Assembly: GCA_010405405.1 (NCBI GenBank)
Contig: MU004232.1
Coordinates: 2,772,507 to 2,836,506 of the forward strand
Direction of reading: 5' to 3'
Origin: Microthyrium microscopicum
Taxonomy: Eukaryota
Length of the DNA stretch: 64,000 nucleotides
The notes below the pieces were generated by a model. It saw only the letters and a program-made list of their open reading frames with translations, was not told the origin of the DNA and searched no databases. Shown in pieces: positions 12,370 to 51,926 of this stretch. Each line of letters opens with the position of its first letter. The first letter of the stretch is position 1. Position numbers and translations under genes: made by a program.

Positions 12370-12370
<1 letters not shown>

Positions 12371-14816
12371 GCTTTTAGGCTACTAAGGGGACTTAGACGT
12401 TACACGTTAATCTTCAAAATAATTTATAATAAAGAGACAATTAGCCTTAATACTATAAAGCATATATAGATAGCTCTTATTAGTCTTTTATTATAAAAAA
12501 TCATAGTCTTCTAAACCTCTATAGCTAGAAACTAAATTTCTATACTTATTTATACTCTTATCTTTAATAATTAAGTCATTTAATTACGTAATAAGCTTAA
12601 ATAATCTTTTAGGCATAGCTTACTAACTAGTTAGTATATTAAACTAGTTTAGGAAGAAGAAAGTATATTAATTACGCTAGTTTTTAAAGAGGTAGCATAT
12701 ATAATCTAGTTTATTACTTTATAGAAAGGATATAGGCTAAAGTACCTTCTATAATAAAGAGTTTTAGTTACTTCTAAGTAGAGTCTAAGAAGCGTTCTCT
12801 TAAGTAGAAATAATAAATAAGTATAAAAATATAAAGGTAGTAATAGAGTAGTAAATAAGTTACTAGGGAAATTTATTAAGTCTAAATATTATATAATGCT
12901 TTATTATAATATAACTTAATAACTCTATAAGGTAAACTTACTATTTATATAACTAAATAAACTATATATTAGGAATTATATAGTTTAATCTTAAGGCTAG
13001 CTAAAAGCTATATAGTAATATATTCTATAAGCTAATCTATTTATTAAAGCATATTAAGATTATTAATATCTTTAAGCCTCTTTACTAAGCGTTACTAAAG
13101 CGTCCCTTATAAACTAGGAGAGCTTTATATATAAGAGTATATTACCTCTATTATTTTTTATTACTTTATAGCTATTAAAAAGAAGATATTTCTTAACTCT
13201 AGATAAAGCGTTAAGTAAGTAGCTATACTAATATAAAGAATATAAGTAAATAATAAGGTAGTAATTATAGCTATAGTACTTAAATATTAATACATAGAAA
13301 GTATAAGGTAAATAAGTAGTTAGTCTTATTTTAAGTAATTATATATATAAGGATATATATAGGATAAGAAACTAAGACTTCATAAGTAGTTATAAAAGAA
13401 AAAGAGAAATAAATAGGTAGTATAGGACGCAATATAATAATAATTAAAAGATTATATAGACTAACTTATACGTAATAAATAGTAATATAAAAATAATTAA
13501 AAGGTATATAGGTAAAACCTTAAAGAGAAGATAGATGAAGCTAGTTAGTTTAATATATATAAAATACTAGATAAGGAGGATAGCAAAGCTAAGGTAGATC
13601 AGATAAAAGATAATCTAGCTAACGCTAAGCAATTATAAGGTAGAAAGTCATACTAGGCTAAAAGAGGCAGCGCACTAGGACAGAGTTTACCGTGCGAAAT
13701 GATCATATGCCTATTCCCTATTATGCGAAGCATAACGTTATCAGGTGCCTACAGAAATATAACATTACCTCTGGTATTCCTAGGAAAGGAAAAGCCCATT
13801 TTGATATTGTTTTTATGTCCTAGCTCTTGAGGGGAATCGCGCCAATATAGAGAACTTATGACCAGTCCAATGGATTGTTTCAAGGTTTTTGGGCTGTCAG
13901 ACGTTACGTGAGCGGATATGAACGGAGCTGACCTTGGTACCTGGCAAGGTATGCTGCACGTTTGCCTCGATGGAAGATGAGAGGCTCATGATGGGGCTTT
14001 GTTTCTGTATTTGAAATACTCAACGCGGTAGAAGGGTTGATAGTTTCAAAGGACCAGTCAAGCTGAGTCAATCAAGTTTCTTTCTGATTGAATTGTTTTG
14101 AAGAAGACCGTGTTGACGTGTTTGACACTTTTGTTTGAGAACTGTGAATCGATGAAAAAGAAGTCTCTGGGAACCATCGAGTGATTTAGTGAGCTCACAG
14201 AGCTGACATTTAAGGATCGCGTCAAGGATTCAGGGGTACAGGTGGATGGAAATAGGAAAATGCACAGCCCATGAGACACTTTCCTTTCCGGTGCAACGGC
14301 TATACGGATCAAGACTGTAATGCTGACTACGATACCAAGATATACTCCGCATTGGAGTAAGATTGGCTGGATGCATCAGTGTCTACTGTATTGCCTGTCG
14401 GCAGGCAAAACCTGCATGATTGGTGAGATTTGTGGTGTTTCGAAAGTTCAACAACGACCGGACGATCATGAGGCTAAGAGGGCTTCTCACCACTTCAATT
14501 GGTTCTATTTTCAGTTGCAAATGCTGAAGATCATGGCACATACCTAGCACTCTTGTTGTTACCGCCTCTGCCTGCAGTGGTATCTAATTGTCTGTGTTTT
14601 GTCCAGTCGTGGCGCTGTAAACCATGACGATGGCTCCCTGCACCATTCAACCTTCAACCTTGACTCAAAAGTCCCTCTGAGTAAACTTCTCCACCCGACC
14701 TTTGAAAGCGGAGACTCTTTCTCACCATTGCCGGTATCACTCCGTCCTTCCGGTTGTCATATCATCAATTGTTTACACAACCGATGAGATAAACTCACCA
14801 GCTTTTGCTCCGCAAG

Positions 14817-16053
14817 ATGGCCTCTCCTGCAAGTTCAACAACTACGACTGCCAAAGTAACCTCCAAGAAAGCAACAACCATAGCGAAAGCGACCACTACC
14901 GCCAAAGCAACAACCGTAACAGGAGCTCTCCCACACACCTTTACTGTTTCCCCGCCTTCTATCACCTCCATATTCGATCCTCCATCTTCATGTTTCAACC
15001 AAGCTTATCTGGTAACAACCACCAGCTCGTCCAAGGTCCTTCGCATATTCCCGGGCTTTCAGGCCGCGTGTTATCCTCCAGGCATATCGGCAGGAACGAC
15101 TTTCAGTCCCGGCATCTGCCCTTCTGGATTTGAGCAGGTTGCCGTAACAGTATTCAGGCCCTCGCAAACCGATGCTGTCAGTGGCGCGTCAGGCTCTGTT
15201 TCTGCCGCTACTGTTACAACGACGGGCACAAGGACTGGCGAAGCGCAGACGGAGGCGACTTGTTGTCCTAGGTCAGTACCAATTCCCGTTGTCCCATCTT
15301 TTACCTTGCTGACTATGGTCTAGTGGCTTCTCCGTGATCTCGAACGGTGATGCCTGCGAATCTTCAACCACCGCGTCCGTGATATACGTGTCTTCCGCAG
15401 GAGTGTTTGAAAACTCTGGTGTAACGACTTATACCAGTACAACTTACATAGCCACCAAACTCAAAGCAAAAACCACTGCCAAAATAACAGCGCCCGCTTT
15501 CGTTGTGCAATGGGCAGCCTCGAATCCTATAATCACAAGTCTTCTTGCCCAAGAAGCCAACAATACAGCTCCTGGAGGTAATAATGGAACCACATTGGGT
15601 GGAGGTGACGACGACGACTCGACACAAGGACCTCTCACTGGCGGAGCAATAGCTGGCATCGTCATCGGAATATGTGCGTTCGTGTTTATCGCTGGCGCAC
15701 TGGTCTGGTGGAGGATGCACAAGAGATCAAAAAGGGATCGGGATGGATCGTTGGGCGAGACGGAAGATGCCAAAACTGCGAAAACCAGCAATCCTGACCA
15801 TCCATGGTTGAAACCTGAACTCGCTGGTACTGAGGTAAGGCCAAACTCGGCGCCATCGATACCGCCGACGGAATTACCTGGCGATACACCAGCAAAGCCA
15901 ACTAATGGCCCACCGGCAGAGCTTGAGGGCACCACTCCACTGCCTCCTCATCAGCAAGTAACAAGTCCGGTAGAAATGTCGACGGTTCAATCACCGGTAG
16001 GCAGAGAGCACGCTCATGTAAGACCTGGGAATGTAACGAATGATCATGTTTGA
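14817..16053 (+). CDS. Single-pass membrane protein, Thr/Ser-rich with Cys motif (Mid2/WSC-like surface protein); 2 exons
   Basis: ATG at 14817. Intron 15272-15323 (GTCAGT...GCTGAC...TAG) joins the two ORFs and gives CCPSGF. Also FSPGICPSG motif, TM helix GAIAGIVIGICAFVFIAGALVWW followed by basic RMHKR, and cytoplasmic ELxG repeats. Confidence 0.8.
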
Positions 16054-16688
16054 TGAATATGGATGAGATGAATCGGCGCGTGTGGTTTTGCTGTTTCCTT
16101 CACTAGATACCCGGACGATCAAGTCGTTAAAAGAGAGTAGTGGGATCATAGCTCATAAAGGCGTTAATGGCCAGGAGAGGGCCCTGCAAGACGGAGAATT
16201 GTCCAATCAATGTATAACTCATCTGAAGAGAACAAGTACTGTGCGTGGTGACACAAGGATGTCAATGTGAGGATTAGTTCGTGATAGTCTACCAGAGCAG
16301 ATCATTAGATCGATTGATGGAAGAGAATTCGCCCAGTCACCAGCACAATTGAACTTTCAATATTTGATCGCAGTTTTTTAGCTTATGATGCAGCTTAAAA
16401 ATAAAAGCATGTCTTTCCAGCTTTAATAATGTAAGTGTGTCTGTCTGTTACATTCAAGATAGATTGACGCCAAGCCCTACTAGGCGTAGCGCAGCCTTTT
16501 CGATAACCTGAAGCAACATCTTTCTGGTAGAACTCCATTACTTGTCTCCGATTCTCACCATCATATCGCCAATAGTCACTCATTGCTTCTTTCATTGCTA
16601 TAGCTAGCATACCTAATCCTCATGTCCATTCTTTCATGATCCTCACAAGCCAAAGGCTGTGGAGAGACAGCCCACAGAAGCCGATGCC

Positions 16689-19217
16689 ATGGTTTCGATA
16701 TTCTCCAGTCTGAACCCGCTCGACGAGGAGCTGGGTAAGAAAGATGACGATCACAAAGCTGGCGATGGAGGAAAGACATGGCACGCCCTGCGCAGCTCCA
16801 TGCGTATGCGAAGGAGGCGGCTGATTGTACTCGCCATTACGATCTTTCTCATTTGGTTCCTCTTCACGCACCGATTGCGAGACATGCTACAACATCGAGT
16901 CAAGGAAGAAGAAATCATTGTCGCCAATGCCAATGGGAAGAACTACCACTCTGAGACGACTGTCAAAGACTCTTACGGCTTGCGCGGTATCACTCCTTCA
17001 CAACCATCGAATGCGAACGAACCCTTCTCCAATCCCAAACCGAAGCCACAGCACGTTGCACCGAATAAGGGAAAGCCTGATAAGACCAAGTTTTATACCA
17101 AACACTACTATGAAGGAGAGATGAAGTTTTATGCTCTACCGGTTTCGATACGGAGAATACAAAGCAGCTCCAGCTTTGCGAATCAAAACTATAATGTGCT
17201 CTTCTGCGCGGCGAATTTACAATCTGCGGCGAATCTTATACCGGTTGCTTGCGATATGGCAAAACGTGGAACTACCCGAGTACACATGGCATTCATGGGT
17301 CGTAATGATATGAGTATCGACGAGATTCTTCAAATCAATGGCATAGACAAGAGCTGTCGTGTGCTTTTCCATGATGCCAGGCCAGACTTTGCCCCTTATA
17401 GTTCCGATCTAAGAGCAGCTTCCAGCGTATCAAGTGCCCTGAAGTACATCCAGGACTATATGCATCCTCAAGCTCTAATCACTCATTCTCCCGATGCTGA
17501 AGACGACTATTTCACAACCGCCATCGCAGCCAAGGCCAAGGAATACAATATACCAGTCATCCAGGTACCAGAGCAGGGCTGGAAAGTTGGCGCAGCTCAC
17601 CCTGATGACAGTCTAGGCTGGATTGCTAGATTAGATACCAAGGCGCTGAATTCTTGGACTGTGGCCGATATCGAAATAGTCGTTCAGGCCCCGACCGGCT
17701 CATCTGGCCCATTGATCAAGCTACTCGACTCGTTAAGCAAAGCCGACTATACTGGCACGAAGCCACCTCGTCTTACTATCGAATTGCCATCTGAACCAGA
17801 TCTTATGGTTCAATCGTATCTCAAAGATTTTAAATGGCCACCAGGCCTCTTGTCAAGTCAACAATCACAGCTAAATATAAGACGAAGGTTACCCATTCGA
17901 AGCATGTCCCAAGAGGAGGCATCGGTACGATTTATGGAATCATTTTATCCTTACGATCCTGAACGATCCCACGTACTCCTTCTCTCACCAAATACCTACA
18001 TCTCGCCCTTATATTATCAACAACTTCGATACTACTTGCTCAAGCTAAAACATACACAATTTCCGGTCTTGGATCCACCATTGATGGGCATCGCTTTGGA
18101 TATACCGAGTGTGTATCTCAATGGCTCCCAAGAGTTCCAAGTTCCAGATATCACGGCATTAGATTTAACAACGCAAGAAGAAAGCAAGCCGACCTCAAAG
18201 ACCATCCGACCACACTTCCTATGGGAAGCTCCCAATCCCAATGCTGCTCTGTACTTTGGCTCAGCCTGGGTAGAACTCCACTCCTTCCTATCTCTCCGAC
18301 TAGCCAAATTTCACTCCGATCCACATCCTCAACCACGCAAAAAGCTCGTCAGCGACCATCTCCCCGCTTGGACCGAATACGCCCTCGAATTCATGCGCGC
18401 TCGCGGCTACACTTTCTTCTACCCCGGCGCTCTCACCCCACACGACGCCTTCGCCGTTATACACCACGACATTGAGCAGCGACCAGACGAATACTCCATG
18501 CCCAAGAAAACCCGCGTCTTCCACAAACGCAGCGCCAGACCAGATCCCAAGCCCGTCGCTGCGGACATACCCAGCGTCTTCACAGATCCCTTCCTCCCGC
18601 CTGACGATGCAGACTTCTCAATCAAGAAAACTACACCTCTCAAACAATCCAACCCCATAACCTCCGAACGCGCTTTCCAACCTCTCCTCCACACACTGCC
18701 CTTCCGTGGCCCAGAACCAAGCATGTTCAGCATCCCGCACTACGCCTGGGACGGCAGCCTCATCGAAGTTAGCGAAGCGGCGCGCCGGACAGCAGCAGAA
18801 GCCGAGAACTTCCGCCAAGAACTCGGCGGCTGTCGTGGTTCGCCCTCCCGTGAAGGCATGATGCGCAAAATCGTACCTGGTAGTGCCGCAGATCTCTTCT
18901 GCTGGAAGGGCGTGGAAGAGAACTGGATTCCTCTGCCCAAAGAGGGCAACGGTAAAAGTGGAGATTCAGAAGTTGCTGGTGCACAGCCAGCGGAGTATCG
19001 ATCGCCTCAGAGGGCGAGTGAGTGGAAGGAGTTGGATAAGGACGTGGAGGATTATTTGAAGGAGCCGTTGTTGACGCCGCGGGTTAAGGTTGTTGGGGCT
19101 GATGAGTTGGTGACGGATACGGAGTTGAAGGAGAAAGTGGCGGAGAAGCTTAAGGAGAGGGAGAAGATTAAGGAGAAGGTGGGTGGTGATGATGGGAGGG
19201 AAGATATTGAGATTTGA
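16689..19217 (+). CDS. Conserved fungal type II membrane protein, putative glycosyltransferase (GT2-like annotation)
   Basis: Long intronless ORF; first in-frame ATG at 16689. N-terminal RRRR plus TM helix (LIVLAITIFLIWFLF). Motifs MAFMGR, FHDARPD and PPRLTIELP are recalled from a fungal family often labelled GT2; the function is uncertain. Confidence 0.7.
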   Translation: MVSIFSSLNPLDEELGKKDDDHKAGDGGKTWHALRSSMRMRRRRLIVLAITIFLIWFLFTHRLRDMLQHRVKEEEIIVANANGKNYHSETTVKDSYGLRGITPSQPSNANEPFSNPKPKPQHVAPNKGKPDKTKFYTKHYYEGEMKFYALPVSIRRIQSSSSFANQNYNVLFCAANLQSAANLIPVACDMAKRGTTRVHMAFMGRNDMSIDEILQINGIDKSCRVLFHDARPDFAPYSSDLRAASSVSSALKYIQDYMHPQALITHSPDAEDDYFTTAIAAKAKEYNIPVIQVPEQGWKVGAAHPDDSLGWIARLDTKALNSWTVADIEIVVQAPTGSSGPLIKLLDSLSKADYTGTKPPRLTIELPSEPDLMVQSYLKDFKWPPGLLSSQQSQLNIRRRLPIRSMSQEEASVRFMESFYPYDPERSHVLLLSPNTYISPLYYQQLRYYLLKLKHTQFPVLDPPLMGIALDIPSVYLNGSQEFQVPDITALDLTTQEESKPTSKTIRPHFLWEAPNPNAALYFGSAWVELHSFLSLRLAKFHSDPHPQPRKKLVSDHLPAWTEYALEFMRARGYTFFYPGALTPHDAFAVIHHDIEQRPDEYSMPKKTRVFHKRSARPDPKPVAADIPSVFTDPFLPPDDADFSIKKTTPLKQSNPITSERAFQPLLHTLPFRGPEPSMFSIPHYAWDGSLIEVSEAARRTAAEAENFRQELGGCRGSPSREGMMRKIVPGSAADLFCWKGVEENWIPLPKEGNGKSGDSEVAGAQPAEYRSPQRASEWKELDKDVEDYLKEPLLTPRVKVVGADELVTDTELKEKVAEKLKEREKIKEKVGGDDGREDIEI

Positions 19218-19641
19218 TGGAGATTCTCATTTGATCGACTGTTGGTGACGATTTATTGTATGGTGTTTAGGCGTTGGGATACTGGGGATAAATGTGCTAT
19301 AGGGACTTGTCATGAGTATGGAACTGAACGAAGCTAGTTTAACAGCATGTATTTAACTATGGATATTTCATGAAACTTGTCTGAAGTCTATTGTTAGGAT
19401 ATTTGTATCTCGTTGCGCTTTCATGCTCCTGTTTGATGCTTTTGCCGCACATGCAGCCAGCCGTCTGCTGTCACCACAGCTCCTGGATAAATTCTGCTCT
19501 GCTTCCTCCTCCCTCTTCAACGCTTAAGCCCTTCGCACAATCTTCACCATATCGTCAACTACAAGTAGACTAAGACACACATTCGACTCGGAAACAGATA
19601 TAACAAGCTCTAGATCGAAATAGTGAAGACAGGATCTGGAC

Positions 19642-20684
19642 ATGGTGGAAACGTCAGACGCTGACCGCGTTGCGGCCTTCATCCCGAAATTCGAGCTTCA
19701 AAAGGTGCTTTTTCACGGTAGCTTTTCAACAGATTATTTTTTGACATCAACAAATTCTGACTTCAATTCCAGATCCTGGCGCCAGACGCGTCGTGCTTCT
19801 AGGCACCATCGATGGTCAACCTGGTTTGGTCCTCGTGGAGCGCACTGCATTCCCATCTGACGCAGAAACGCTCAAAAATCTGACCTCAACGCTTGCCAAG
19901 CTCACCACGTTGAGCACCAATGACATTTATGCCTGGTTTCTAGGCAAAAGCGGTGCTGATATGCCACCTGATCTAAAGATCAACTTGATCTATCCTTGCA
20001 CCGACAAACACATTGCCAAGTACACGCCTCAACGCGTCCGCATGGTGACGGAGACCGCTGCTATCTATGCGGATAAGGTCCGTCCGTATATGGCTGCTCA
20101 GCGCGATGCAGGTCGTCTGAACTGGGTGTTCAATATTCTTGAAGGTCGAAAAGAGCAGGACGATATCATCTATAAAGATGCTGATGAAGTGGATGGCTTC
20201 CTGCTGATGCCTGACCTCAATTGGGACCGTCGAACCTTGACTGGACTGCATCTGTTGGGTATTGTCGTGAGACGAGATATCTGGAGTCTGCGCGACTTGA
20301 AACATGAGCATATTCCTTGGTTGAAGCATATGCGTGAGCAGTTGGTTTTGCATACTACGAAGTTGTATCCGGACATTGAGGCGGATGAACTAAAGTTGTA
20401 TGTTCATTGTAAGTTGCAGCCCCCTCCATGATCAAACTTGATATTAATCGGGGTCAGACCAACCAACATATTACCACTTCCATATCCACGTCGTCCATTG
20501 CCAGCTTGAAGCTGGAGCGACCCAAGCAGTCGGCAAAGCTTTTGGATTAGAGAATCTTGTCAGCCAGCTCGAAATGCTTCCAAAAAATAAAACACTGGCC
20601 GAACTCGACCTCACCTATGCCATCGGCGAGAACCATGATCTCTGGAAACAGGTCTTTGCTCCATTCAAGGAACGCCGCTCCTGA
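19642..20684 (+). CDS. DCS1: m7GpppX diphosphatase (scavenger mRNA-decapping enzyme DcpS); 3 exons
   Basis: Introns 19718-19772 and 20409-20457. The spliced product has the HIT motif YVHYQPTYYHFHIHVV plus NDIY, INLIYP, WVFNILEG, PDLNWD and SLRDL. Stop TGA at 20682-20684. Confidence 0.95.
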
Positions 20685-22129
20685 TCATGCTACGATGTCT
20701 TTCTGGCAGCATAACTGCTGTCAGTAAGGTAGACCGACTGATCAGTCACAAATTACAAACGGTCTGATACCCAGGCTTCTGCTCAATCTGAGTGTCTTCT
20801 CCTCTAGAAGAAAAGGAACATATATCCTTCAGCCCACATTGGGTTTGTCTAGCAAAGAGGCATTTGTGCAATCGCACAAGAGCAACATCCGCCTAACATG
20901 GCGTTGAACATTGTTCCAAAACCGATATGTTCCAGCAGAGTCAATAACAGTCACGTCAAATGTTGCCAGATGCCAGATGCCAGATGGATCAAACCGTCAA
21001 TACCAGTCACATCTTCCAAGATGCCAGGCCAAGCACACTACTAACACCACTTCTATTCAAAAGAGCACATTCAGACAGACCTCGACATCATTCTTTGGCT
21101 ATGCTTTCAAGCGAAGTCTTTTCAACAGGAACAAATTGGCAGATCTGCAAACATATGCCTTTTCATCAAGAACTAATGGCCGGGCTTTAACACCTACTTT
21201 TCCAACAAGAACAAACAAGCAGGCTTTCAACACTTGCTTTTCCATTCCGAGTCTATTGTAGTGAAGCGTCGATGTTTGAAGACTAGATGAAATAAAATAA
21301 AAAGGGGTCGAGGAATCGACTTTTCGACACGGTTGTTTCGTACTGACTGCAATGCGTGCCAACAGCTTACAATAGGAACAACGGATCCGCTGGTCATTTC
21401 GTCCAGTACTACGAAGCCATGATCTTCACAATGTCTAATAGGCAGTGACTTATCTGATCCTGTGGGATTCCCACCGATTACTATAAGGACGTAGACCCTG
21501 GTCAATGCTATTATGATCAATATCAAATGGTGACATCTTCAGGGACAAAATCAGAGAGCCATTTCAACGACTCCATCGATAAAGATGGCTGCCATAACAC
21601 TTCTTAAAGAGTAATCGCCTTGTTTTCCATCGGCATCGTAGAATATACATCAGATTATCGAATACGATGGGAAGTGAAGCACCTTTTGTTTAGCAGCGCT
21701 GGTGGTAGCCATTAGAATTGATGGGAATATGCCATTTAATTTACCATGCCGTTGTGCCTTGGCAATACAGCCAAATGGTCAAATAAATGGCGCGCTCCCA
21801 GCGAGTGCGATAGCTCCCATACAAGACGATCTGCTATCGAGTGTTTTATCATCAAGCGCGTTCAGGTATGGACATTTCATGAAATGCGATAGGAAATATA
21901 ACACCTTCTAATTAATATCGGTCGTGTGAGCCATCGACGCTGATGGGAGAACGCCAGTCATTTGGTCCATCAGTTGGTAGCAAAAAGCTAGAAAATGCCA
22001 GGTAAGGTTGTTATCGTCGATCAATGATTTTTACTTCTATGCACGTGGCGAAACTCGTTCCTGCCAAAATAATACACGTGGGAAGCCATGCACTGCACTT
22101 TCCTGGCGCCCCTCAACGCCAGATCATCC

Positions 22130-22139
22130 AAAAAAAAAA
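22130..22139 (-). terminator. Pol III oligo-T terminator downstream of the tRNA
   Basis: Run of 10 T on the minus strand, about 22 nt after the discriminator base and downstream of the small 3' tRNA exon. Confidence 0.75.
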
Positions 22140-22161
22140 GGATTGATTCAAGTTTTCAAGA

Positions 22162-22297
22162 TACCCGACGCCTGCTTATTGTTAGCGCAATATATTGGCA
22201 TTCAGGGTTAGGGTCGTACGGGACTCGAACCCGCAGCCTCAGGATGAACAAAAACAGCTCATAGAAGTCCTGCGCGCTACCATTGCGCTAGCCGGGC
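22162..22297 (-). tRNA. tRNA-Arg(UCU) with a canonical 16-nt intron (22246-22261) and a second 48-nt spliceosomal-type intron (22172-22219) in the T-stem
   Basis: Minus strand reads GCCCGGC TA GCGC AATGGTA GCGC G CAGGA CT TCT A [16-nt intron] A TCCTG AGGCT GCGGG TTCGAGT CCC [48-nt insert] GC GTCGGGT A. All four stems pair once both inserts are removed. A and B boxes are intact. Confidence 0.9.
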
Positions 22298-22907
22298 GCA
22301 TTTTTGGTTTTTGCTTTACACCAAATTTTATGAAAGTTGTGAGCCAGAAATGCTTGCTTGGCAAATATATATCAGCTCACCTCACGACTCGAGCCATTTC
22401 CATGTAGACTTAGCCATTTCTTCCAAACCACTTTTCCAACATGATAGGGAATGACCGCGAACAATTGCGAATGTTTCTGACCCTGTTAAGTCGGACGAGG
22501 GCCATATGGTGCGAGCATACAGCAAAAGTGTTGCAGATCTCAAAGTATAAAATGATGCACAAAGCCACTGGCGTGCCCATTTCGTCTCTGACGGCTCCCA
22601 TGTGCTACGTTTCGGTAGATAGTGCTGTACTTTCCATCGAATGGGCAAATAATAGGACAGATTATCGACTAAGATGCGAAGTAGCATACTATCCGATGAA
22701 GCGTAGGATATAGGAGACATCGAAGATGATGGGGACACGCCATTGTTTTTCGTGAGTTGATTGTTTGAGTGTCAAGTGCGTCTTGATCACATATAAAATT
22801 TGTTATTAATTGGAGAAGGCTAGAATAAACATTAGACAGATTTGTCTTTGGTATAGTCCAACTCCCATTGCGCTTCTATCATGGATATCAATTGTTCAAC
22901 CCTCTTT

Positions 22908-25900
22908 TCAAATCTTGACGCAAGAAATATCATCAAACTGAATCGTGGCATTACCAACAATATTGTTGTACGTAGCAGCCACTTGAACCAACGGATTTGC
23001 CGTTCCAATGGCCACTGTGCCTTGATAGTACTGCCAGCCGGTGCTGGCAGTACTGACAAGTGGGACTGGGTAGTTGTTGATCTCAACTGTTGGCGTGATA
23101 GTTCCGGTTGCCGAACCCATGGTGATCTTGACGAACGCTGTACAGTTCACATTGGATCCAACGGGCATGTTGGCGGCGAGAAGTTGTCTCGCGAATGACG
23201 TGGTTGTGGTGGTGATGCTACTAGCGACCCACGTGAGGCACTTGCTTCCACAGTGGCAGCTCGTGGCATTTCCAAGGTTTGTGGTTACCGAGTTGATGGT
23301 ACAATTGCTGTTTGCACCTTCCACGTCCCAGTATGTGAGGCTAGATTCGAAGCTGCCGTTGTCCACCAAATTTGAAGTTGAGTTTGAGGCAGCACAAGAT
23401 GGAGTCGCAGATGCTGAAGCCGATGAGGACGTAGCAGACGCCGAGATAGAGGATGAGCTATTAAAGCTGGAGACGGTGCTGCTGAGGGAGGAGACAGTAG
23501 ATGAGCTATTGAACGCAGAGACAGTGCTCGTAACTGAGAAACTGGATGAAGAAGTAATTGATACCGTAGATGAGGCTGTAGAAGACGACACAGTAGAAGA
23601 AATGGTAGAGTTGGCGACTGCTGAGAAAGAAGACGAAGAAGTTAAAGCAGACGAGGAAACTGTAGAGGAAATGACAGAGCTGCTGGGCGATGATGATACT
23701 GCAGAGCTGCTCGCGGAGCTTGAAATGATGGAACTACTAGCCGACGAGGATACCTCAGAACTGCTGGCGGAGCTGCTAGTCGATGATGAGACATCAGAGC
23801 TACTGGTGGAGCTTGAAACCGTAGAGCTAACAACTAAGGATGAGACATCAGAACTCGTCGCGGAACTTGATATAGTGGAACTGCCAATCGAAGATGAGAT
23901 ATCAGAGCTGCTAGCGGTGCTTGAAAGGGCAGTGCTGCTGGCCGACGAGGATTCCGAAATGCTGGCAGAACTTGTGGCGGCCGAGCTTGTGGCAGAGCTC
24001 GTGACTGAGCTAGACACATCTGAGGACGTGACAGAGCTGCTTATGGTTGCTGTGCTGCTCACTGAGCTGGAGATATCAGAAGAAGATGCTGAGCTAGAGA
24101 CATCTGATGAGGATGCGGAAGAGGAGACACTCGAAGAACTGCTGATATCCGAGCTGCTGGATACGGTACTGCTACTGCTTGGAACCGTAGAACTTGTTAC
24201 TGAAGAGCTAATATCGGAGCTTGAAGAGACTGCTGAGCTCGTAGCGGAAGAGCTGACATCGGAACTGCTCGATGCGATGGCCGAGCTAGAGACCGTAGAG
24301 CTGACATCGGAGCTGGAGGGAACTGCCGAGCTCGTGGCGGAAGAACTAACATCGGAGCTGCTGGAAGTGACAGAACTGCTGACATCGGAGCTTGATGAAA
24401 TTATGGAACTAGTGGCCGAGGAGCTGATATCAGAGCTTGATGGAACTACCGAGCTAGAAGCAGAAGAGCTTATGTCAGAACTGCTTGGAATGGCAGAACT
24501 GCTAATGTCGGAACTGGTTGCCGAAGAGGTAATCTGGGAGCTTGATGAAACTGTGGATGAAACTGTCGAGCTCGTTACAGAAGAGCTGACATCGGAACTG
24601 GAAGAAGCTGTTGAGCTCAAGGTGGAAGAGCTGACATCTGAGCTTGAAGGTGTCGCTGAGCTTGTCACAGAGCTTGATGGGATATCGGATGAGCTAATTG
24701 CGGAGCTCGATGAGATGATCGACGAAGCAGTACTGCTGGAGGGAGCGATTGAGGAACTGCTCGTAACGGCACTGGAAGAAGTCAGAACGCTGGAAGACGA
24801 TGATGCCTTGGTCGAAGAGCTGGAAATCAAAGATGACGCGGCAGAACTGGAGGCCTTGGTAGACGAGGAGCTGGAGGCCTTGGTAGACGAAGAGCTGGAG
24901 GCCTTGGTAGACGAAGAGCTGGACGGCTTGACCGACGAAGAAGTTGATGGCTTAACTGACGAGGAAGAACTTGATGCCTTCACCGACGAGGTGCTCGATG
25001 GCTTGACGGAAGAAGAGCTCGATGGCTTGACGGAAGAAGAGCTCGATGGCTTGACGGAAGAAGAGCTCGATGGCTTGACGGAAGAAGAACTCGATGGCTT
25101 GACAGAAGAAGAGCTCGATGGCTTGACGGACGAAGAACTCGACTGCTTGACTGAAGATGAACTTGAGGGCTTCACAGACGAGGTGCTCGACGGTTTGACG
25201 GAAGAAGAACTTGAGGGTTTGACGGAAGAAGAGCTCGACGGCTTAGCTGAAGAAGAGCTTGATGGTTTTACTGAAGATGAACTTGACAATTTGACGGAAG
25301 ATGAACTCGACGGTTTGACTGAAGAAGAGCTTGACACCTTCACTGACGAGGAACTCGACAGCTTGATCGATGACGAACTGGCTTTGACGCTAGACGATGA
25401 TGAAAGTTTAGCAGAGCTCGATGACGCTTGTTGAGCAGCACATTGTCCCTGAGTGAAGCCAGTCTGACATCCCGTACCGCAGTAAGAATCTGATGCTACG
25501 GGTGATCCAGTACCACAGTATCCGAAAGATGAGCAACAGCTGCCGTACGGGCAAGTAGTTCCACCATTGGCCGTGCCACACTTTGCGTTCGTAGATATGA
25601 TAGTTCCAGGCGTCGGCGTCGGTATTGGGCTTGTATTCGTACACGTTCCGAATCCTGATTGGCATCCCACTCCGCAGAAATCGCTAGTTGCACCGCACCA
25701 TCCCCATCTAAAAGTTGTTAGTTGAGTCCTTGTGTTTTGATAGTACAGTAGTCAAGTCACTGCCAGGCAGGATGCAAATAGACGAATCATGCAATCTGCC
25801 AGCAGTCGCATGACCACTGTGAATAGAGAACCCAGATGAGGAACTTACTGAGAACAACAAGGGGCCGCGTCGGGGCATGTATATCCGTTGACACCACCGC

Positions 25901-25985
25901 AAGAATAGTCTGGAGAAACTATAGCCAAAACATTACCAACTGACAATCCCAAAAGAAAAAGCGAACGAAAATATGACGATATCAT
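22908..25985 (-). CDS. Secreted chitin-binding protein: signal peptide, 2x hevein/CBM18, long Ser-rich stalk, C-terminal CBM4_9-like beta-sandwich; 2 exons
   Basis: ATG at 25985 (MISSYFRSLFLLGLSVGNVLA). Intron 25708-25848 (GTAAGT...ACTAAC...TAG). Hevein motifs CCSQWGWCG...FCGVGCQSGFGTC and CCSSFGYCG...YCGTGCQ. NLVDNGSFES near the C-terminus. Confidence 0.88.
24850..25380 (-). repeat. 24-bp coding tandem repeat (VKPSSSSS / TKASSSSS)
   Basis: Many near-identical GAAGAGCTCGATGGCTTGACGGAA units on the + strand. Confidence 0.9.
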
Positions 25986-27615
25986 AATGAGCGAGTGACT
26001 GTATAAAGGCCCCAAAGGGGTAGCGAAAGAAAGATATTAGCTATATCGAGGTTGAACGAGTGACCTAGGGAAAGAAAGGAAGCGCAAAGTCAGGCATCGC
26101 GAGATGTTTATGGAATATTGAAGTTAGCCCCTTGTCAAGAAACAGCTCTACTGATTCTGACACGCGTGGCCAATCAAGCTAACCTACTTTTTTATGTTCA
26201 AGCTAGTCAAGACATTGATCAGCCACGGCGCTGGACCAGGCGTGGCAGAAGCTTGTTGGCGTTAGTGCTCTCCAGGAAAGGGATTCGAGAACCATTTCCT
26301 GGTAAAAGCCCAAGAACATGTCTGTCTCCCTGCCGAGAATTAGGCCAAATTATAAATATCAATAGACCCACCTGCCGAGACAGGTTTCTTTACAATGGCT
26401 GCGAATGATTCAAGCAGTGGAGATGTTGTTGTTGTACGACTATGGTACTGATTTCGAAATCTGATAAGGATCTGCGCTTTTCCAGATCTAGATCTACAGA
26501 GCCGCAAAGCACCACAACTAGGGGTACAACTGACGTTCTGTCATCCAATTTTCCATTCTGAACTTGGAACAGATCTTGCATCCCAGCTTCTTACAACTAT
26601 GAAAGCCATTTGATTAGCAGTGGATACATGCAGCTGTGCATTTCTGCGGCGCGAGTTATTCCTTCATCACAGCAACGAGGAACGACTCGATAAAACGCAG
26701 CAGGGGAAAAATAGAAAGTGAGCCATGCAGACGCCGAGAGTGTGCTGCCGATTGATCGTTCTCGGCGGCTACGACGCAAATTACTTCGCTTGAATATGAC
26801 CAAAAGAAAAGTAATGGCAATAACAAATAATAAATCGATATCTTGATCGAACGAGGGTGGGTATTTCGCTAGAGCCCAGGAGCGGCGCGAGGAGAGCTTA
26901 GTGACAGCTGTAATTGTACGGTCAGACTCAGACGAAGAGCTTCAGCAGTACTCCAGCAGTCCAATGATGCTCACTGCTTCTGCATCTGGATGGTGAAGCA
27001 CTGAAGTTGGAATGGCGTTCGCAGGGCTGTGTGGACTGGACAAAGCTCAGCGAGAAAAAGCAAAAATGCATGCAGAGTTGCCCCTGCGTCTGGAAGCACT
27101 AGCGCAGGTGGCGGCGTTGGCGTTCAACTTTATTGCGACAAATCTTAACATCATTGGTGATTCTGTCGCTGCCCACGCTCCTGGCTCCACGTCAATCATC
27201 ACATCGAGCTTTGCCATGCGAAGCCACGAAAAGGGCCTGTTATGTCGAGAGTCTAGACCGCATGACTCTTGGCGGTGGGTCGCGAAGCCAGACGCGTCGT
27301 ACAGTTGGAGACTCGGAGGTGCGCGATACAAGAGCCACATCTTTTCCCGACTTGTGACAAACATTCTCGTGGCTACCTAATTGAACGCCCAGAGCGAGCA
27401 CTTCCGATTGAGTCCGGAAGCACATCTCAAGAAAGCAATCTCAGCTGAGCAACTTATTCATAACCTTCTTTCCACTCCTCGGGGAGAGTTGGTGTTTCAT
27501 TTTCCAACCATTGATTCTTATGTTGAAGCTATTCGCACCATAGGCTCTAGTAGTTTCACATGTTTTGCATGTTATGTTGTCTCATTCATTACTCTTACAC
27601 ATACCTCACGCTAAC

Positions 27616-28807
27616 CTACAGACCCAAAGAAGGATTACTTCCTCCGATATCCTCCTTGCATGGTTTCGCACTTGTACATGCTTCTGTTAGATTTCGATTT
27701 GGACCATCTTCCCAGCCCTTCGTCGCATCCAGGTTTCTCTTGAATGTTTGTCCATCCCATTTCCAGGCTTGAACATACATATTATTGAAGTATTTGATAT
27801 CTTCTACAAGATTTCCAACAGGCATGACAACCTCATATGGCACTTCTGGTAGCACCGGTGCTGGCCCTGAAGCTTTGTACAAAGGTGGACCTGGTATGGG
27901 GTATGGTGTAATGTTGCGGTAGATATCGAAGTAGATACCTGGATCGCCGGGCTTATATCCTCCAGGAAACTTCACTCCACTCGGTTGAGCATTACCGTTT
28001 CCTTTCACTTCAATGTTGAAGCAAGAGATGAAATGCTACAAGATTCTGTTAGCCATATCCCTTGTTGGGCCCAGTTGACGGAGTTTCTTCGACTTACTTG
28101 GGCACCCTTTGTCTTAGCGGCGGCATCGTAATATCGACTATCCTGAGTGGCAAAGTGAAGAGTAATCAACTCGTGGCGTACAATATATTTGCCTGGCTTG
28201 ATATCGTGGGGAATAGTGGTCGCTGTCACATTGTCGTTCGATGTGAGTACGTCTGTCGCCCATGTCACATTGTCGGGCAACAATCCGAGTTCCCAGATTT
28301 TGACAAATTCGACGTTGTTGATGTCGACTTTATCCAAGTCACCCTCATATTTGCCCAAGTATGTCATCATTGGCCCCTTGTGCGTTATAGGCCAAGTGCT
28401 CCATCCGAATGTTATGTTGCTACCAGCTCTAGCCGGTGCTGAAAGCCCAGCGCGAATCGGATTTGATCCGCATGCAATGTCTTCTTTCAGAACATTGTCT
28501 GGTGCATATCGTGGATGGTTCTTGTATGATTGTCCAAAGGCAATACGCTTCACACCCGACTGGCCATCGACATGACTGAACAGATGTTGTTAGTGTCATG
28601 ATATAGATCCGATATAATAGCAGATATATCTACATACGGGTTAAATCCTGGGTACCTGGAATTAGAGTCAACTGAAGTTCTTGGCAACTCCTAGCCCGGC
28701 CGATTCGGCGAAACTCACAGTTTGTTGTCAACTCCAATCCACTTAACGTAACCATGCCCCAGCACGGATGTCACAAGTGACAGGACGATGAAAGCATTCA
28801 ACACCAT
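27616..28807 (-). CDS. AA9 (GH61) lytic polysaccharide monooxygenase with C-terminal extension; 4 exons
   Basis: Signal peptide MVLNAFIVLSLVTSVLG then His1 (HGYV). Motifs YPGF, WPITHKGP, PGKYIVRHELITLH, GAQ|HFISC (intron 28036-28097), FPGGY and YPIPGP. Confidence 0.9.
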
Positions 28808-29362
28808 TGTTGCAATGATTTTCCTCCGAAACTACGATTGCTGGTAAGGAATTGAGGTGGGGAACTCTTTTTGACCTCGTGTATTTGGGGCATGACTGGT
28901 TTTGTTCTTGCATTCGTCCGATGGTTTGCTCGGAAAGTCCCCGAAAATTAATATAACACATATTGCAGCGAAGAGGCACTACCACTGGACTTCCTCAGCC
29001 ACGAGGTTCCAAGCTAAGATCTCATATCTAAATAGGGGCTAGATTTAGCCGCGTCGATATGGTTCGGTGAGTTCTGCATGCGAGCCGCGTTGCAATAAGA
29101 TTATAGTTCGCACCTGCCAGATATCTAAAGAACTAAATTATCCCGGCAGATCTCAGGGTCATTCCTGGGTTCGCTCAAACTTATCTCATGGATCGCCATG
29201 AGACTTCGGCGGGATCCAGATCTATATCAATTGCTTGGAGGGCAGGTACCAAAGATAAGTACCGAATATATATCCTGATACCCCCTTTGACGCGGGTTTT
29301 TGGCATTGTGCTTATCGATTTCGCATAACATAGGAATCAATGAAGCAGCAACACCCAATATC

Positions 29363-30969
29363 ATGCATTTAACGCAATTTTTTGCTGGCATTACTCTACT
29401 TCATTGTTCATTAGCCGTTAAGATATTAGACGTGGTACGAGATGACCCGAGGCTCAGCGCGCTAGCTACGATCATAGCAGGAACTGGAGGTGGAGGAATA
29501 AATCCAGGTAATTGTTGAATTTACTGAGTATAGATGTGGCTCGTCCTAATGTAGTTCAAAGATCTTGAGCAACGATTTGGTCTGAATGGGAAAAATTTCA
29601 CCATTTTCGCCCCAGTCAACGATGTAAGTACATGGTCGCTTTGATGAATCAACATATAACTCTCCATACTTACGAAATCGGACAAGGCATTTACAAAAGG
29701 AAATCCAAGTTTTCACAAACAGCTCAAACTATCCGAGAATTACCCCCTGCTACTTTCTCTCATCCGGAGCCATATAGCAGATGGAAACATTTATCTACCA
29801 GCCCCTGGAAATCGAATTTCTGGAAACTCCGTGGAAGGCTATCCCATCGTTCTTGGAGTGGACCAACAAGGAAGCCGCACAATTGACAACAAATACTATA
29901 CTGTCAACATAACTTCCATGAGGAAGGTCGAAAATGGCCACATATACACGATAGATCGAGTTCTGGATCCATTTGTGCAATCGTTCGGCATGACAATTCC
30001 TCAAAACAAAAAGACAGACGCATTGCTTACCACTCCCCCGGGAACGCCAATCCCGTACGCTACTATGGCGGATATCGTGAGCTCTGATCCTAATCTCTCT
30101 ACGTGGCGAGGGATTATGAATGAGGTCTCTCCCAGTTTCATGAAAAGGTTGGCGGAAAAGCCAGCTAGCAGTCCAAAGTTATGCCCACCCGGGACAGCGA
30201 AGCCAAACGCCATCTTGCCTGATAATGCGGCCTTCGAGTATTTATCAAAGGAGTACCGAAAATCGCTAAAGGTATAGTCGCTCCAATTGAGCTTCTTCTT
30301 CTTCTCAAGGTTTCCATGATACTCAAGTTGAGCTCAAGCATCGTGTCAACTTGAGATATGTTGGGAAGCTGGTTCAATGATAATCTGAAAGAGAAGACTA
30401 GCTGAAACTTATGTACAGGCACCTTTCAATTTCGCAACCTCCCTCCAATTGCTAAGCTTTGGTATAACAAAGCCAACTTGCTTGGTAAGTTCGTACTTTC
30501 ATTGCAAAAGACCGAAACAACAAATTTTGGTTCTTCAGATCAGCATGACCTATGTTACTCCAGCGCAAACACTAACAATCACAGTCGTGGGAGGATATTG
30601 TCGGTATCGTAAGAGCATATAAAGGGGTATGTTACCAAGTTTTTCTTTCCCACTTTGACAATGGCCGGCAGCGATGTCACAAAGAGGATCATTTCGGGTC
30701 TTGACTCTCATTGACTAGCTGAGTTACTTTATGGAAAGAACTTGACTGAAGAAACACAATCAACAGATCTCCACCCATTGCTAATACCATCATAGTACAA
30801 AATATATTCACATGATTCTGAAATGAACATGACAATTACTGAGCCAGCGAAGGGCAGCGGCGAGTTCTTCCTCAACAACGCCAAACTTACCTTCGCAAAC
30901 ATGTGCGCCGGCAATGGATGCATTTGGGTAGTGGATCGATTGATTGATCCGGTCTATCGTCAAGTTTGA
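29363..30969 (+). CDS. Secreted fasciclin (FAS1) domain protein, multi-exon
   Basis: Signal peptide MHLTQFFAGITLLHCSLA. H1-like motifs FTIFAPVND and ILPDNAAF; H2-like motifs NGHIYTIDRVLDP and NGCIWVVDRLIDP, so two FAS1 domains. Stop TGA at 30967-30969. Internal exon boundaries not all resolved. Confidence 0.8.
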
Positions 30970-31227
30970 GCGTGATGTCACACATATGCTCAATGATATA
31001 ATATCACTTAATGTCGCATCATAATATCTCACTACTCGAATGTGAGCATCTAATATGCCCTCTTATCCACCCGTCTCCTTTTATTCACGTCTCACATTTC
31101 AGCCCAAAACATGTCGAATGTAGCCGACGGTATACCGCCTGGACGTTTTCTATCCTTTAGCAACTCGTCGAAACCGTGATTAAGGCCTCAATCACATTGG
31201 ATGTCAAGAACCTGGATTCAGCCTAGA

Positions 31228-32330
31228 CCAGGGATAGGTCTCTCAGAAATGATCTTCGAACGCTGTCATAAAATGTAGCAGAAGATCTTCTCGGCCAGCT
31301 CTCGCGACCAATCATAACCCGAAGGGCCGTTTGTTGTATCTCAAAGCGCCAAGAGGAGTCACTCCAATGGGATATCCTAAGAACCGAGTTAGTTGGCATT
31401 TACTCATGGTTATCCTTGGAAAAGAACTCATCCGCAGATGCAGCGGGATGAGCCAATGCAGAGCCCGCAGGGGCAGCCAGGATATCGATGTTGTTTTCAT
31501 CAAACCACACTTTCCAAAGCTTTGATGCTTGTCTGCCTTAAATCTTTTCGAGCACAGTCAATCTCTTACCCAGGTTCGTTGTGGGCCTGAGCTTTTATCA
31601 ATTCGTCTTGGTTGTTGTGGGCTATATAGCGAGTCAGTTATAGGTTCCAAATTGCTGTATGTGATCTTACAGGCGATTAGCGCGAAATCTTTGTGCTTTT
31701 CGTTAAACTCGATGATGTATTGTAGAGATTGTATCTTGGAGTCGGTCCGATATATCAGATCTCCAGGAATGCTTAAGTGTTTAATTTCCCAAAGTAGTTC
31801 ATGGTCAGTATCTATGAGAAACATTGTATCTCTTCGAACAGATACAGCACTATTGATCGAATCAATACTTACATGCTATCGGTCCCAATGCGTTTTTGCT
31901 GTCAACTTGAGAAAGTGGGGCATTTCAAGTATGTTGACAGGATATTGGACCGCTGAAGCGAGCGCCCTGATGTGTCGAACGATTATTTTGTATTCTTCCT
32001 TCTAAGATATATCAGCAAAGAGAACTATCACAACTCTAATACCAAGCCGCTGGCGTACCATCTATCCCGTAGTGCCATCATATTGTCGACATATGCTGTT
32101 GTCGAGCTTCCATATATCTGGATCTGCAAACCCAATCTTCAGACCAGAGAAGCTATCTTGAACAACGTAACGACCTGGTTTTTCTAGCGCCAGTTCAACA
32201 AGTGGCAACAAGTCTTTTACTGACTTGGCCATTGGACCTGCAGAGTCAAAGAACATACAGATTCCCAGAATGCCGTCCATGTCACATGGCATACTGTAGG
32301 CTTTAGCGGAATATTACATACCTACTTGAC
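31228..32330 (-). pseudogene. Truncated amidase-signature family pseudogene
   Basis: Fragments FDSAGPMAKSVKDL, LKIGFADP and GYPIGVTPLG...RPFGL*LVARAGREDLLLHFMTAFE. In-frame stops at 32062-32064 (TAG) and 31312-31314 (TGA). N-terminal half absent. Confidence 0.7.
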
Positions 32331-32754
32331 TTTGTTTTCAACGTACAATCTTACTAAATAACGGGGGTGGAACTAAAAAGCATCTAAAAGCATGGAGTAT
32401 AGATACACAAGCTCGAACCCTTTTCTCTATCGTTTTTAAGCCAGAGAACTTGACATATTAGTAAATGTATCTCCTACTCTGTGGTCTCTCATTTATTTGA
32501 GCAACCGCGCGCTTGATGTGAACTTTTCTTTGTCTATTATAGATGCCATTAACATAGTTCAATTTATTGAAATTATCTTATTGGCGCTTGCGCCAGTAAA
32601 GAAGATCTTCCCCCGGGGCTGAAAGTACTGGCAATCAAGAAGCTACCAGCGCCTAAGGGCGTAACTCGTGATCTCCTCCCAACAGACAACATCACTCTGA
32701 TCTAAAGTTTTCGTCGATTGGTTCTGGAAGGGAGTTTCTAGACGTTCGTTAATC

Positions 32755-34675
32755 ATGATTTCACAAATAGCCGGTCTGGGGGTTTGTTTTTGTTTCTTTC
32801 TCGTTCTTCCGTCCTCAACAGGTACATCTTTGAATGCCAAAGGGAAAACATTCACCCTTCACCAAACAGCAGTCCCTAGAGCACGACCTTGGTTCGCAGC
32901 AAAATCAGTCAAGGACACGCACTTAAAGTATCAGCTCCGCGTTCCCATTGAGATAGAAAATGCGCTCAGTCAGGAGATACCACCGAATCAAACAAGCGTT
33001 TCTGCAAGACCTGGAACAAGGACAGATCAAATGTACGTCGTGAATGTTCAAGTAGGTGGGCAAAACATGACTCTGGATCTTGATACTGGCTCTTCAGATC
33101 TGTAAGTAACCCCTGATTTACTCACGAAATGACAACTGCGTTTGTCTTTCATGAGAATGCTTTCAATTTCACAATTTCGTTGAATGCTAAGACTCTGGGC
33201 TCTGGGAGTTCGATTTCTGGCTGCAGTCACCTCGTCTTTCAATAACTTTCAGGAGAATACGTAAACACGCTAAACGTAATCATTTAGATGGGTAGTTTCT
33301 TCGTTGCTCCCCAGCACGTGAGTTATGGTCTTATCATTATCATGAGTTCCGGTTGTCTGCCAAATGTCTGCTTCACAGATATGTCAGCGATGACCAGTCT
33401 CCTTAGAAGGTTTATGTTAACGTCTTTCCAGTCAAAAAGCAACTCGTCCTGCCAGTAGATTATACGATCCTAACGGGAAGACAGCAAGACGGCTGGATGG
33501 ACACTCTTTTATGATATCTTATGGAGACCAGAGCTATGCCAAGGGTCAAGTCTACCTCGATCGAGTGGCTGTTGGTGACCTGGTCGTACCAAATCAGGCT
33601 GTCGAGGTTGCTACTTCCATGGCTACGAAATTTGTAGTAGAAACTGGGCACGATGGACTATTTGGGTAAGAAAGCTTCTTTCGTTGGATTGCTATCGCTG
33701 TAGCCTGTATTCTCACTCCTCCAATACTTGGTGTCTGCTGGTTTCGGGGTCTGGAGACCAGCCAGCCGATGAACGAAACAGCTGGCATGCTTCAATCAGA
33801 TGTGCTAGCTTCCATAGACCGGGCCCGGTTAGAAGATATCTTGATTGTCGCATTTATCAATTTCAATGGGAGATATCGCAGTCGATGGGAGCCACTTATT
33901 GTGCCCACCACTTGCCAGCTCACATCGCAGCTTAACCCACGCATTGGAGATATAGCTAACGAATCCAGGTTTGCCGCCAGCGCAAAGAACTCGGTATCAC
34001 CTAAAAGTCAGTTGACATGGTTTGACAACATTCGCCCGACATTGGCACAACCAGTGTTCACATGTTCTCTCAAGCGTCATGCAGTTGGTAGTTTTGATTT
34101 TGGTTATATCGACAAGGCGAAATACAGAGGGGACATTGTTTGGTCTAATGTGAGAGGACATCGAGGTTATTGGGACTTCAATCCAACTGGTTTTGCGATT
34201 GGGGATGGTGAAGTTCATCAGGCTACCTTTGAGGCCATTGCCGATACTGGGTCATCCTTATGGTAAGAGCCCCAACCTTCTAGGTCTACCCATGCAGCTA
34301 TCAACACCATTTTGTGCCTTATAGCTTTGTACTAATCAGTGTAGGTACCTGCCAAGGACTATCGCAGACGCTTACTGGAAACAAGTGCCCGGATCGAGCT
34401 ATTCAACTGCTCAGGGTGCTTTTGTGTTCCCATGTCAAAGCAAATTGCCCGAAATGACAGTTATTGTGTCCGGGCAGCCAGTCAGAGTCCCAGGAATCAA
34501 CATGAACTACCAAACCGTCTCTGCAGGCACCTGCATGGGCGGCATTAATCGTGATTTTGGTATGCCATTTAGTATTTTTGGAGATGCTTTCCTCAAAGGT
34601 CTCTTCGTGGTTCATGAAGTGCCTCTGAAAGGACAAAGTAGGATAGGATTTGCGGCACAAGCACGGAGCGATTAA
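32755..34675 (+). CDS. Secreted pepsin-like aspartic protease (MEROPS A1); 5 exons
   Basis: Signal peptide, two catalytic motifs LDLDTGSSDLWV and IADTGSSLW, flap ISYGDQS, IFGDAFLK. Introns 33102-33287, 33318-33431, 33666-33968 and 34263-34344 keep the frame. Confidence 0.92.
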
Positions 34676-35454
34676 GCATCTGAATATGTCCGCTCATCCA
34701 ACTCTAATAGGGCACATTCACCACCTACAGTATGGTGACAACGATGGAGTTGTGGTATCATCGAGGTCGTCTGTGATAAAGAGTTATAGAGGCACGGAAA
34801 CTAGACGATCAAGATATTTAGATAATGCCATTGATTTAAACAATGTGGGATTTCATAACGTTCAATGACATACTTAACTGTTTTCAGCTGGAAGGATGAA
34901 TTGACAAATATCACGCTTAAATAAGGTAATTATACTAGATCTATGTGTTTGGGACGTATGCAAACATTGAAAGTTATTGATATAGCACAACAAAAATTAC
35001 TTGTTCAAAAGGCAGTTGTTACTTAACGACCATTTGAGGTATCTAATTTGAGATGTCATGTCCTGGGCGGATTAAATCCTAAATACCTACCTACTCGGAG
35101 TGCACCACAAGCTTTCATCTTTAAATTGTGCCTAGGGGCCTTTTGACTAAGTCACTTGCTGCTTCTTGCTGCTTCCCTGCACAAAATGAATGGGTAGAGT
35201 ATGTATCTGAAAGGCTCTGAATGCGTATGATTTAGTCATCCAACAGGCTGGCAGTATGCAAGGCGCGCTCCAATCAGCCTCATTTGATTCCAGACGCTAC
35301 GCTCGTTGGTCGTGTGCTTTGTTTGCCTTGAAGGATGTTCTGAGTCGAAAGTTTCATCGAGTACAATGAGAAACATAGCACCTTTTGCTTAAGAGCGTTG
35401 GTGGCATCCATCAGAGTTGATGGGAGATCGCCATTTAGTTTGGCACGCGATTGG

Positions 35455-39890: not shown

Positions 39891-40065
39891 AGTTTCCGAA
39901 TATATAGGTACCTAGGCCTTCCAGTCATTCAAGTTCATCGAATACTAATTTCAGGTCTTGTTCCGGGCTGTTATGAACTCTCCTAATGATTATAGCTTGG
40001 TCAAATTAGATGATGGAGCAGCTTCCAACTCCAGAATATGCTGAGTTCTGAAAAATGTCACTTCT

Positions 40066-51852: not shown

Positions 51853-51926
51853 CAAAAAAGATGGACTGCTGGAGAGGAACACAAGCATTCCACTTTATTT
51901 GTTAGGCTCAGCAGTCAGAATGTTAC

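Follow-up and report, generated by a model that had tools for sequence, protein, structure and literature searches.

What becomes of a tRNA gene whose acceptor stem, as encoded, cannot close? On the minus strand, positions 22297..22162 of the window (the whole 64,000-nt stretch of DNA analysed here) hold a tRNA-Arg(TCT) gene with two inserts, one of 16 nt and one of 48 nt. Read straight through, the 3' strand ACGACCC cannot pair with the 5' strand GCCCGGC; an earlier note on this DNA had made this point, and our own reading of the sequence bears it out. The same note had proposed that the longer insert is a spliceosomal intron lying in the T-stem, in addition to a normal tRNA intron. The locus thus raises the question of whether the 48 nt are indeed an intron of the kind usually found in protein genes, whether they are removed in the cell, and whether a working tRNA results.

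The gene and its immediate surroundings are laid out as follows, in 5' to 3' order on the tRNA strand.

22262..22297, minus strand: tRNA-Arg(TCT) 5' exon, from the acceptor 5' strand to anticodon-loop position 37 (ARAGORN cloverleaf, Rfam alignment)
22297..22291, minus strand: acceptor 5' strand, GCCCGGC
22290..22280, minus strand: A box TAGCGCAATGG, in the D-arm
22261..22246, minus strand: canonical tRNA intron, 16 nt, at 37/38 (ARAGORN)
22254..22250, minus strand: T5 run inside the 16-nt tRNA intron
22220..22245, minus strand: middle exon, running from position 38 through the anticodon stem (3' strand), variable loop, T-stem (5' strand) and T-loop to the CCC that begins the T-stem 3' strand (ARAGORN, Rfam)
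22234..22230, minus strand: T-stem 5' strand, GCGGG
22231..22221, minus strand: B box GGTTCGAGTCC, perfect
22229..22223, minus strand: T-loop
22222..22220, minus strand: CCC, the part of the T-stem 3' strand ahead of the 48-nt insert
22172..22219, minus strand: 48-nt spliceosomal-type intron in the T-stem, at 63/64, recognised by its signals and skipped in a contig of one sequencing run (X5, below)
22162..22171, minus strand: 3' exon GCGTCGGGTA, made up of the last two T-stem bases, the acceptor strand GTCGGGT and the discriminator A
22130..22139, minus strand: T10 run, resembling a Pol III terminator, 22 nt past the discriminator

The 16-nt insert occupies the position of an endonuclease-type tRNA intron (37-38, by ARAGORN), although its borders can also be placed one base further on. 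When both inserts are removed, ARAGORN draws a 72-nt tRNA-Arg(tct) in which every stem pairs. Excision at 63/64 had been predicted to restore both the T-stem and an acceptor stem with two G-U pairs, and the ARAGORN drawing has the same structure: removal of the 48 nt yields a GCGGG/CCCGC T-stem and a GCCCGGC/GTCGGGT acceptor stem, in which one of the two G-U pairs lies at 1-72, an unusual feature that could reflect decay. The B box left untouched by the insert and the T10 run just downstream, both described previously, are also present. T runs are sites of Pol III termination, and the terminator role given to T10 is assigned on this basis. A run of five T can also terminate Pol III in some yeasts; the T5 run within the 16-nt intron is thus a possible premature stop, which would favour either a Pol II-derived product or decay.

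As encoded in the genome, the gene escapes ARAGORN, which finds no tRNA in the whole window and none in the unspliced locus. With the 48 nt excised in silico by coordinates before the program was rerun, it reports tRNA-Arg(tct), whether the 16-nt intron is kept or removed; with the 16-nt intron alone removed, it again reports none. The earlier note had anticipated that tRNA finders would miss such a gene, and that a finder rerun on the spliced sequence would recover an Arg(TCT) tRNA, and ARAGORN behaves in just this way. The Rfam model RF00005 matches the locus with 40.8 bits over model positions 8-63 of 71. This match ends at 22218, two bases inside the insert, because the first G and T of the insert are taken as the end of the T-stem, in agreement with the previous suggestion that the initial GT allows the T-arm to fold. 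No second tRNA-like match was found by Rfam in the whole window at E <= 1.

The insert itself contains the elements expected of an intron removed by the spliceosome, and each of these (a GTACG donor, GCTAAC and CAG within 22219->22172) reads as originally described.

22219..22214, minus strand: donor GTACGA
22186..22181, minus strand: branch box GCTAAC, 6 nt before the CAG, with 10 nt from its branch A (22182) to the 3' end
22174..22172, minus strand: acceptor CAG

Both a CTRAY branch box near the 3' end and a final YAG are therefore present. At the donor, the GT is followed by a consensus-like RNG, with the exon side (CCC) and position 6 off consensus; on our reading of the sequence, GTACGA after an exon ending in CCC would pair weakly with U1. 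Since the tRNA structure dictates where the insert begins and ends, to within 1 nt and whatever the insert contains, the signals can be compared with those of arbitrary stretches of the same length. The full set (an initial GTRNG, a CTRAY placed 6-30 nt from the end, and YAG as the last three bases) is carried by three of the 101,904 48-mers on both strands of 13001..64000, the part of the window with normal GC, and the insert is one of those three.

Its length is also in keeping with its surroundings, where introns of 49, 49, 51 and 62 nt were recognised.

20409..20457, plus strand: intron in the DcpS gene, 49 nt (Pfam DcpS_C profile 88 before, 89 after)
36066..36114: intron, 49 nt (ORF continuity)
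43364..43414: intron, 51 nt, with GCTAAC 12 nt from its end (ORF continuity)
28036..28097: intron, 62 nt, with GCTAAC 13 nt from its end (ORF continuity)

The strict ORF-continuity screen returned eight rows at five distinct sites; a loose version gave 57 candidates, mostly false, and was discarded. The insert had been likened in length to neighbouring introns of 47-55 nt, and the DcpS intron falls within this range. The insert is essentially unstructured, with a minimum free energy of -1.8 kcal/mol that is no better than that of shuffled sequences (z 0.67). We also noticed that intron nucleotides 29-37, ATTGCGCTA (22183-22191), which overlap with the branch box, are the exact complement of nucleotides 8-16 of the tRNA, in the D-arm (22282-22290), and that the minimum-energy fold of the precursor makes use of this 9-base pairing. 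It could be due to chance, or could keep the precursor unfolded for splicing.

To see how the locus appears in sequencing data, contigs of four runs (X1, X2, X5 and X6) were aligned to 21600-22900. Runs X1-X4 are DNA, likely from the source sample; X5 is classed as 'RNA?' by guess and carries another organism label; and X6 is a distant DNA run, from organism C. In the DNA runs X1 and X2, 2,964-nt contigs cross the tRNA locus with 0 differences and retain the 48 nt. The X5 contig, 2,921 nt long and at a depth of 2388, matches 21929-22170 and 22219-22900 with 0 mismatches and 0 gaps, and misses exactly 48 nt, the ends of which read CT..AC on the plus strand and hence GT..AG on the strand of the tRNA. 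The two sides of this junction share 1 nt, and the shorter side comprises 242 letters. The 16-nt tRNA intron is still present in this contig. If X5 is RNA, this contig is precisely the intermediate predicted by the model of the earlier note, with the 48 nt gone and the 16 nt kept.

These contigs carry neither strand nor molecule information, and can merge overlapping transcripts. No X5 contig covers the 48 nt, but since contigs drop rare variants, this absence shows only that the spliced form dominates. X6 has no cover at the tRNA; eight of its 30 bins are covered, all of them in a repeat at ~21650-21990. Similarly, X1 and X2 contain no second contig matching the tRNA at 80% likeness, which is uninformative on copy number: paralogues would match in 36- and 26-nt pieces only, and some records were filtered out, so that nothing about the number of Arg(UCU) genes follows from these two runs.

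The X5 contig extends well beyond the tRNA, which makes the neighbouring features relevant to the origin of the spliced molecule.

22908..25751, minus strand: gene whose mucin-like, Ser-rich product has a chitin-binding (CBM18) domain at its N-terminus (947-codon ORF; Pfam PF00187, 5.5e-09)
~21655-21976: member of a family of dispersed repeats, lying downstream of the tRNA at a distance of 190 nt, with 150-175x the single-copy depth in the DNA runs
19640-20684, plus strand: gene for DcpS, the scavenger decapping enzyme, 1.7 kb from the tRNA
19705-19772, plus strand: probable second DcpS intron, 68 nt, near the start of the gene

The Ser-rich gene lies upstream of the tRNA on the same strand, and its stop codon is ~610 nt before it. 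The X5 contig runs unbroken from the last 2 kb of the Ser-rich coding region through the 610-nt spacer and the tRNA to 200 nt past T10. Pol III would not be expected to transcribe beyond a T10 run. Because the contig does continue past it, at least part of the spliced RNA is probably Pol II read-through, rather than Pol III pre-tRNA. The Ser-rich protein contains long tandem SSSSSVKP repeats; a weak match in it to the C-terminal repeats of phage T4 gp5 was below the Pfam cut-off and is probably a low-complexity artefact. In the DcpS gene, the 49-nt intron at 20409-20457 sits just before the histidine-triad motif.

The dispersed repeat has many diverged copies, and is also found in X6; the exact local copy is absent from X5, and a partial copy, 77% identical, lies at 35356-35441. 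Elsewhere in the window, positions 1-12500 form an AT-rich block with a GC content of 21%, in which TpA/ApT is 1.63 and (CpA+TpG)/(ApC+GpT) is 0.14, against 0.69-0.83 and 1.25-1.34, respectively, in the rest of the window. Judged by its dinucleotides, the block bears strong signs of repeat-induced point mutation (RIP), and so points to a filamentous ascomycete with RIP. We note that a C-to-T change on the 3' strand would account for each of the two acceptor G-U pairs of the tRNA, and that one of these changes sits in the CpA context preferred by RIP. RIP leakage from the nearby repeat is a possible, though speculative, cause of these pairs.

How much the skip can tell us depends on what X5 is and on how the skip arose. 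Were X5 DNA, the 48 nt would represent a presence/absence polymorphism between isolates, and there are reasons to consider this: the kind of run is only guessed ('RNA? may be DNA'), its organism label is unlike those of the source runs, and the X5 and DNA contigs share one end, at 24897. However, the shared end is no argument for DNA, because it lies in the tandem SSSSSVKP repeats, which would break any assembly at that point. Moreover, X5 shows 0 mismatches in 924 + 165 nt, and given its two gaps, 21765-21928 and the missing 48 nt, the share of 31-letter words should be 0.9216, compared with 0.92 observed. The word share is thus fully explained by the gaps, and the rest of 20500-24000 must be identical in X5; a separate isolate would need to match the window over ~3.3 kb without a substitution while carrying two structural changes. 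The coverage also looks unlike that of DNA, in that the depths of adjacent single-copy contigs differ tenfold in X5 (241 vs 2388) but not in the DNA runs (91 vs 120 and 1218 vs 1113), and the repeat bins at ~21650-21990 reach 3-31x the single-copy depth in X5 vs 150-175x in X1 and X2. Even then, a precise indel at GT..AG borders would itself suggest an intron. On depth, repeat bins and sequence identity we are highly confident that X5 is RNA, from the same or a near-identical strain, and regard a polymorphism in DNA as improbable. That the skip arose in assembly or by template switching, over a random insertion in a decayed pseudogene, has even less to commend it: the skip is seen in one contig of one run, but its sides share 1 nt, at a depth of 2388 and with 242 letters on the shorter side, it lands on borders predicted beforehand from the tRNA structure, and splice signals of this kind are rare (3/101,904). 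We give this account hardly any credence. A plain pseudogene would leave both the splice signals and the exact X5 skip unexplained. A different enzyme might instead be responsible, since T-arm introns and tRNA genes with several introns occur in Cyanidioschyzon merolae, nucleomorphs and archaea, as passages of PMC4090602 and PMC3978253 describe, and the insert could by analogy be a non-canonical tRNA intron cut by the tRNA splicing endonuclease. Yet no bulge-helix-bulge (BHB) motif, in its 3-4-3 or relaxed hBH/HBh' form, was found when bulge size could vary from 2 to 4 nt and helix length from 3 to 5 bp in both cut registers, the best central helix having two of four pairs in either register. 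The insert is unstructured, lies at 63/64, and carries the full set of spliceosomal signals (~3 in 100,000), and the fungal endonuclease is known to measure to 37/38. Cleavage of the 48 nt by this enzyme is accordingly very unlikely.

A weightier alternative accepts the intron but not the tRNA. Here the 48 nt would be excised only from Pol II read-through, or from the 3'-UTR of the Ser-rich gene, while Pol III transcripts would remain unspliced or stop at T5, and intact paralogues would supply tRNA-Arg(UCU). The arrangement of the locus is in line with this, in that the Ser-rich gene is upstream on the same strand, ~610 nt away, and the X5 contig spans its coding region, the tRNA and sequence beyond T10. 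The T5 run in the 16-nt intron, the two acceptor G-U pairs (one at 1-72) and the weak exon side of the donor point in the same direction, and insertions in the T-arm are usually taken as pseudogenes, according to passages of PMC4090602. Against this, the A box, B box and T10 are intact, every stem is paired after splicing, and both acceptor changes away from G-C preserve pairing; transcripts of Pol III can, furthermore, be spliced, as is that of fission-yeast U6 in the account excerpted from PMC5855946. The intact exons carry little weight in either direction, since a recent insertion would also leave them intact. On balance, we consider a dead tRNA with a live intron somewhat unlikely.

We conclude, with good though not complete confidence, that the 48 nt are a real spliceosomal intron excised in vivo. 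The signals, the size, the lack of a BHB motif and the exact skip in the probable RNA run X5 all support the identification first proposed from the letters of the insert. Whether a working tRNA then results from the spliced gene appears evenly balanced to us, and we would say the same of the complete chain, in which a U2-type GT-AG intron in a nuclear tRNA-Arg(UCU) gene is followed by two-step maturation to a 72-nt tRNA. That this is a working tRNA-Arg(UCU) gene needing the spliceosome and then the tRNA endonuclease, and the first tRNA known to need both, is a tentative proposition to which we attach slightly less confidence.

If the gene does work, we infer that maturation proceeds via two splicing machineries. 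Fungal tRNA splicing endonuclease measures from the mature domain of the tRNA to the 37/38 position. In the proposed pathway, the spliceosome would act first, in the nucleus, removing the 48 nt. Only after this removal would the acceptor and T arms be able to stack into the mature domain, which would be needed by RNase P, by RNase Z and by the ruler-type Sen endonuclease. Since the Sen endonuclease needs the mature domain, the 16-nt intron would be removed second, by endonuclease and ligase, giving the 72-nt tRNA-Arg(UCU). The form seen in X5, with the 48 nt out and the 16 nt in, is the intermediate expected from a spliceosome-first order. The precursor may be cut from Pol II read-through of the cell-wall gene upstream, with splicing gating its release by RNase P and RNase Z. 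As for the origin of the intron, its source was probably an existing intron that was transposed or reverse-spliced into a tRNA-containing RNA, with reverse transcription and recombination to follow. An origin by reverse splicing has also been proposed for introns of snRNA genes, in the relevant passages of PMC5855946.

Relatives of this gene were sought by two routes. A metagenome scan used a pattern consisting of the T-loop, GT, a gap of 25-55, AG and the acceptor strand, with 70 nt upstream of each read; none of the 44 loci obtained was a tRNA-Arg(TCT) gene with an insert, and the 44 consisted of coding sequence and of bacterial tRNAs with a chance match behind them. A protein-word search with the plus-strand ORF overlying the tRNA gave one candidate, with none scored. 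In the full-text literature searched, whose scope largely leaves out subscription journals, no tRNA gene is described as carrying a spliceosomal intron.

In the textbook division of labour, the spliceosome processes mRNA and the transcripts of a few snRNA and rRNA genes, and an endonuclease and ligase process tRNA. As far as the literature searched goes, tRNA genes would be a new kind of host for a spliceosomal intron, here beside an intron of the endonuclease type. If true, this would be the first substrate common to the spliceosome and the tRNA endonuclease. It would also add to the few kinds of non-coding RNA gene that spliceosomal introns have entered, which bears on their spread by reverse splicing. 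Some fungal tRNA 'pseudogenes' with an arm insertion would then be hidden genes, concealed by tRNA finders and by their label. The locus further offers a simple experimental system, with a single junction to probe, ...GAGTCCC/GCGTCGGGTA.

Such an intron has its closest counterparts in other non-coding RNA genes. Introns of the mRNA type occur in fungal U6, U1, U2 and U5 snRNA genes and in ascomycete rRNA genes (Tani and Ohshima 1989, 1991; Takahashi 1993, 1996; Bhattacharya 2000, as cited in passages of PMC5855946), and the hosts given in those passages of this 2018 review are U6, U2, U5, U1 and rRNA, with tRNA not among them. The likeness lies in a GT-AG intron with a branch box in a small, structured non-coding RNA gene and, for U6, extends to Pol III transcription from internal A and B boxes and to an intron thought to come from reverse splicing (PMC5855946, in part). 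In contrast to the snRNAs, however, the host here is a tRNA, which is no part of the spliceosome's active site, and the gene carries an endonuclease-type intron as well, so that a single RNA would be acted on by two unrelated splicing systems.

The tRNA introns of archaea, Cyanidioschyzon merolae and nucleomorphs resemble the present insert in forming a second intron outside 37/38, and in causing standard finders to miss the gene (passages of PMC4090602 and PMC3978253). Unlike these BHB introns, the insert has no BHB motif; instead, it has spliceosomal signals and the size of a local mRNA intron, and it resides in a fungal host, whose endonuclease is expected to work in ruler mode. Insertions in the T-arm of eukaryotic tRNA genes are, as noted above, usually read as pseudogenes, and those pseudogenes with a D- or T-arm insertion share with our locus a disrupted T-arm and acceptor (PMC4090602, in part). 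They differ from it in that here there are exact splice signals, excision restores a tRNA, and a probable RNA run is without the insert. Finally, introner-like elements provide a route by which new spliceosomal introns arise in fungal genes; the abstract of PMC3609843 describes them as occurring in many copies, exceeding regular introns in length and folding stably. The insert gives no support to such an origin, at 48 nt, with a minimum free energy of -1.8 kcal/mol and as a single copy in the 64-kb window.
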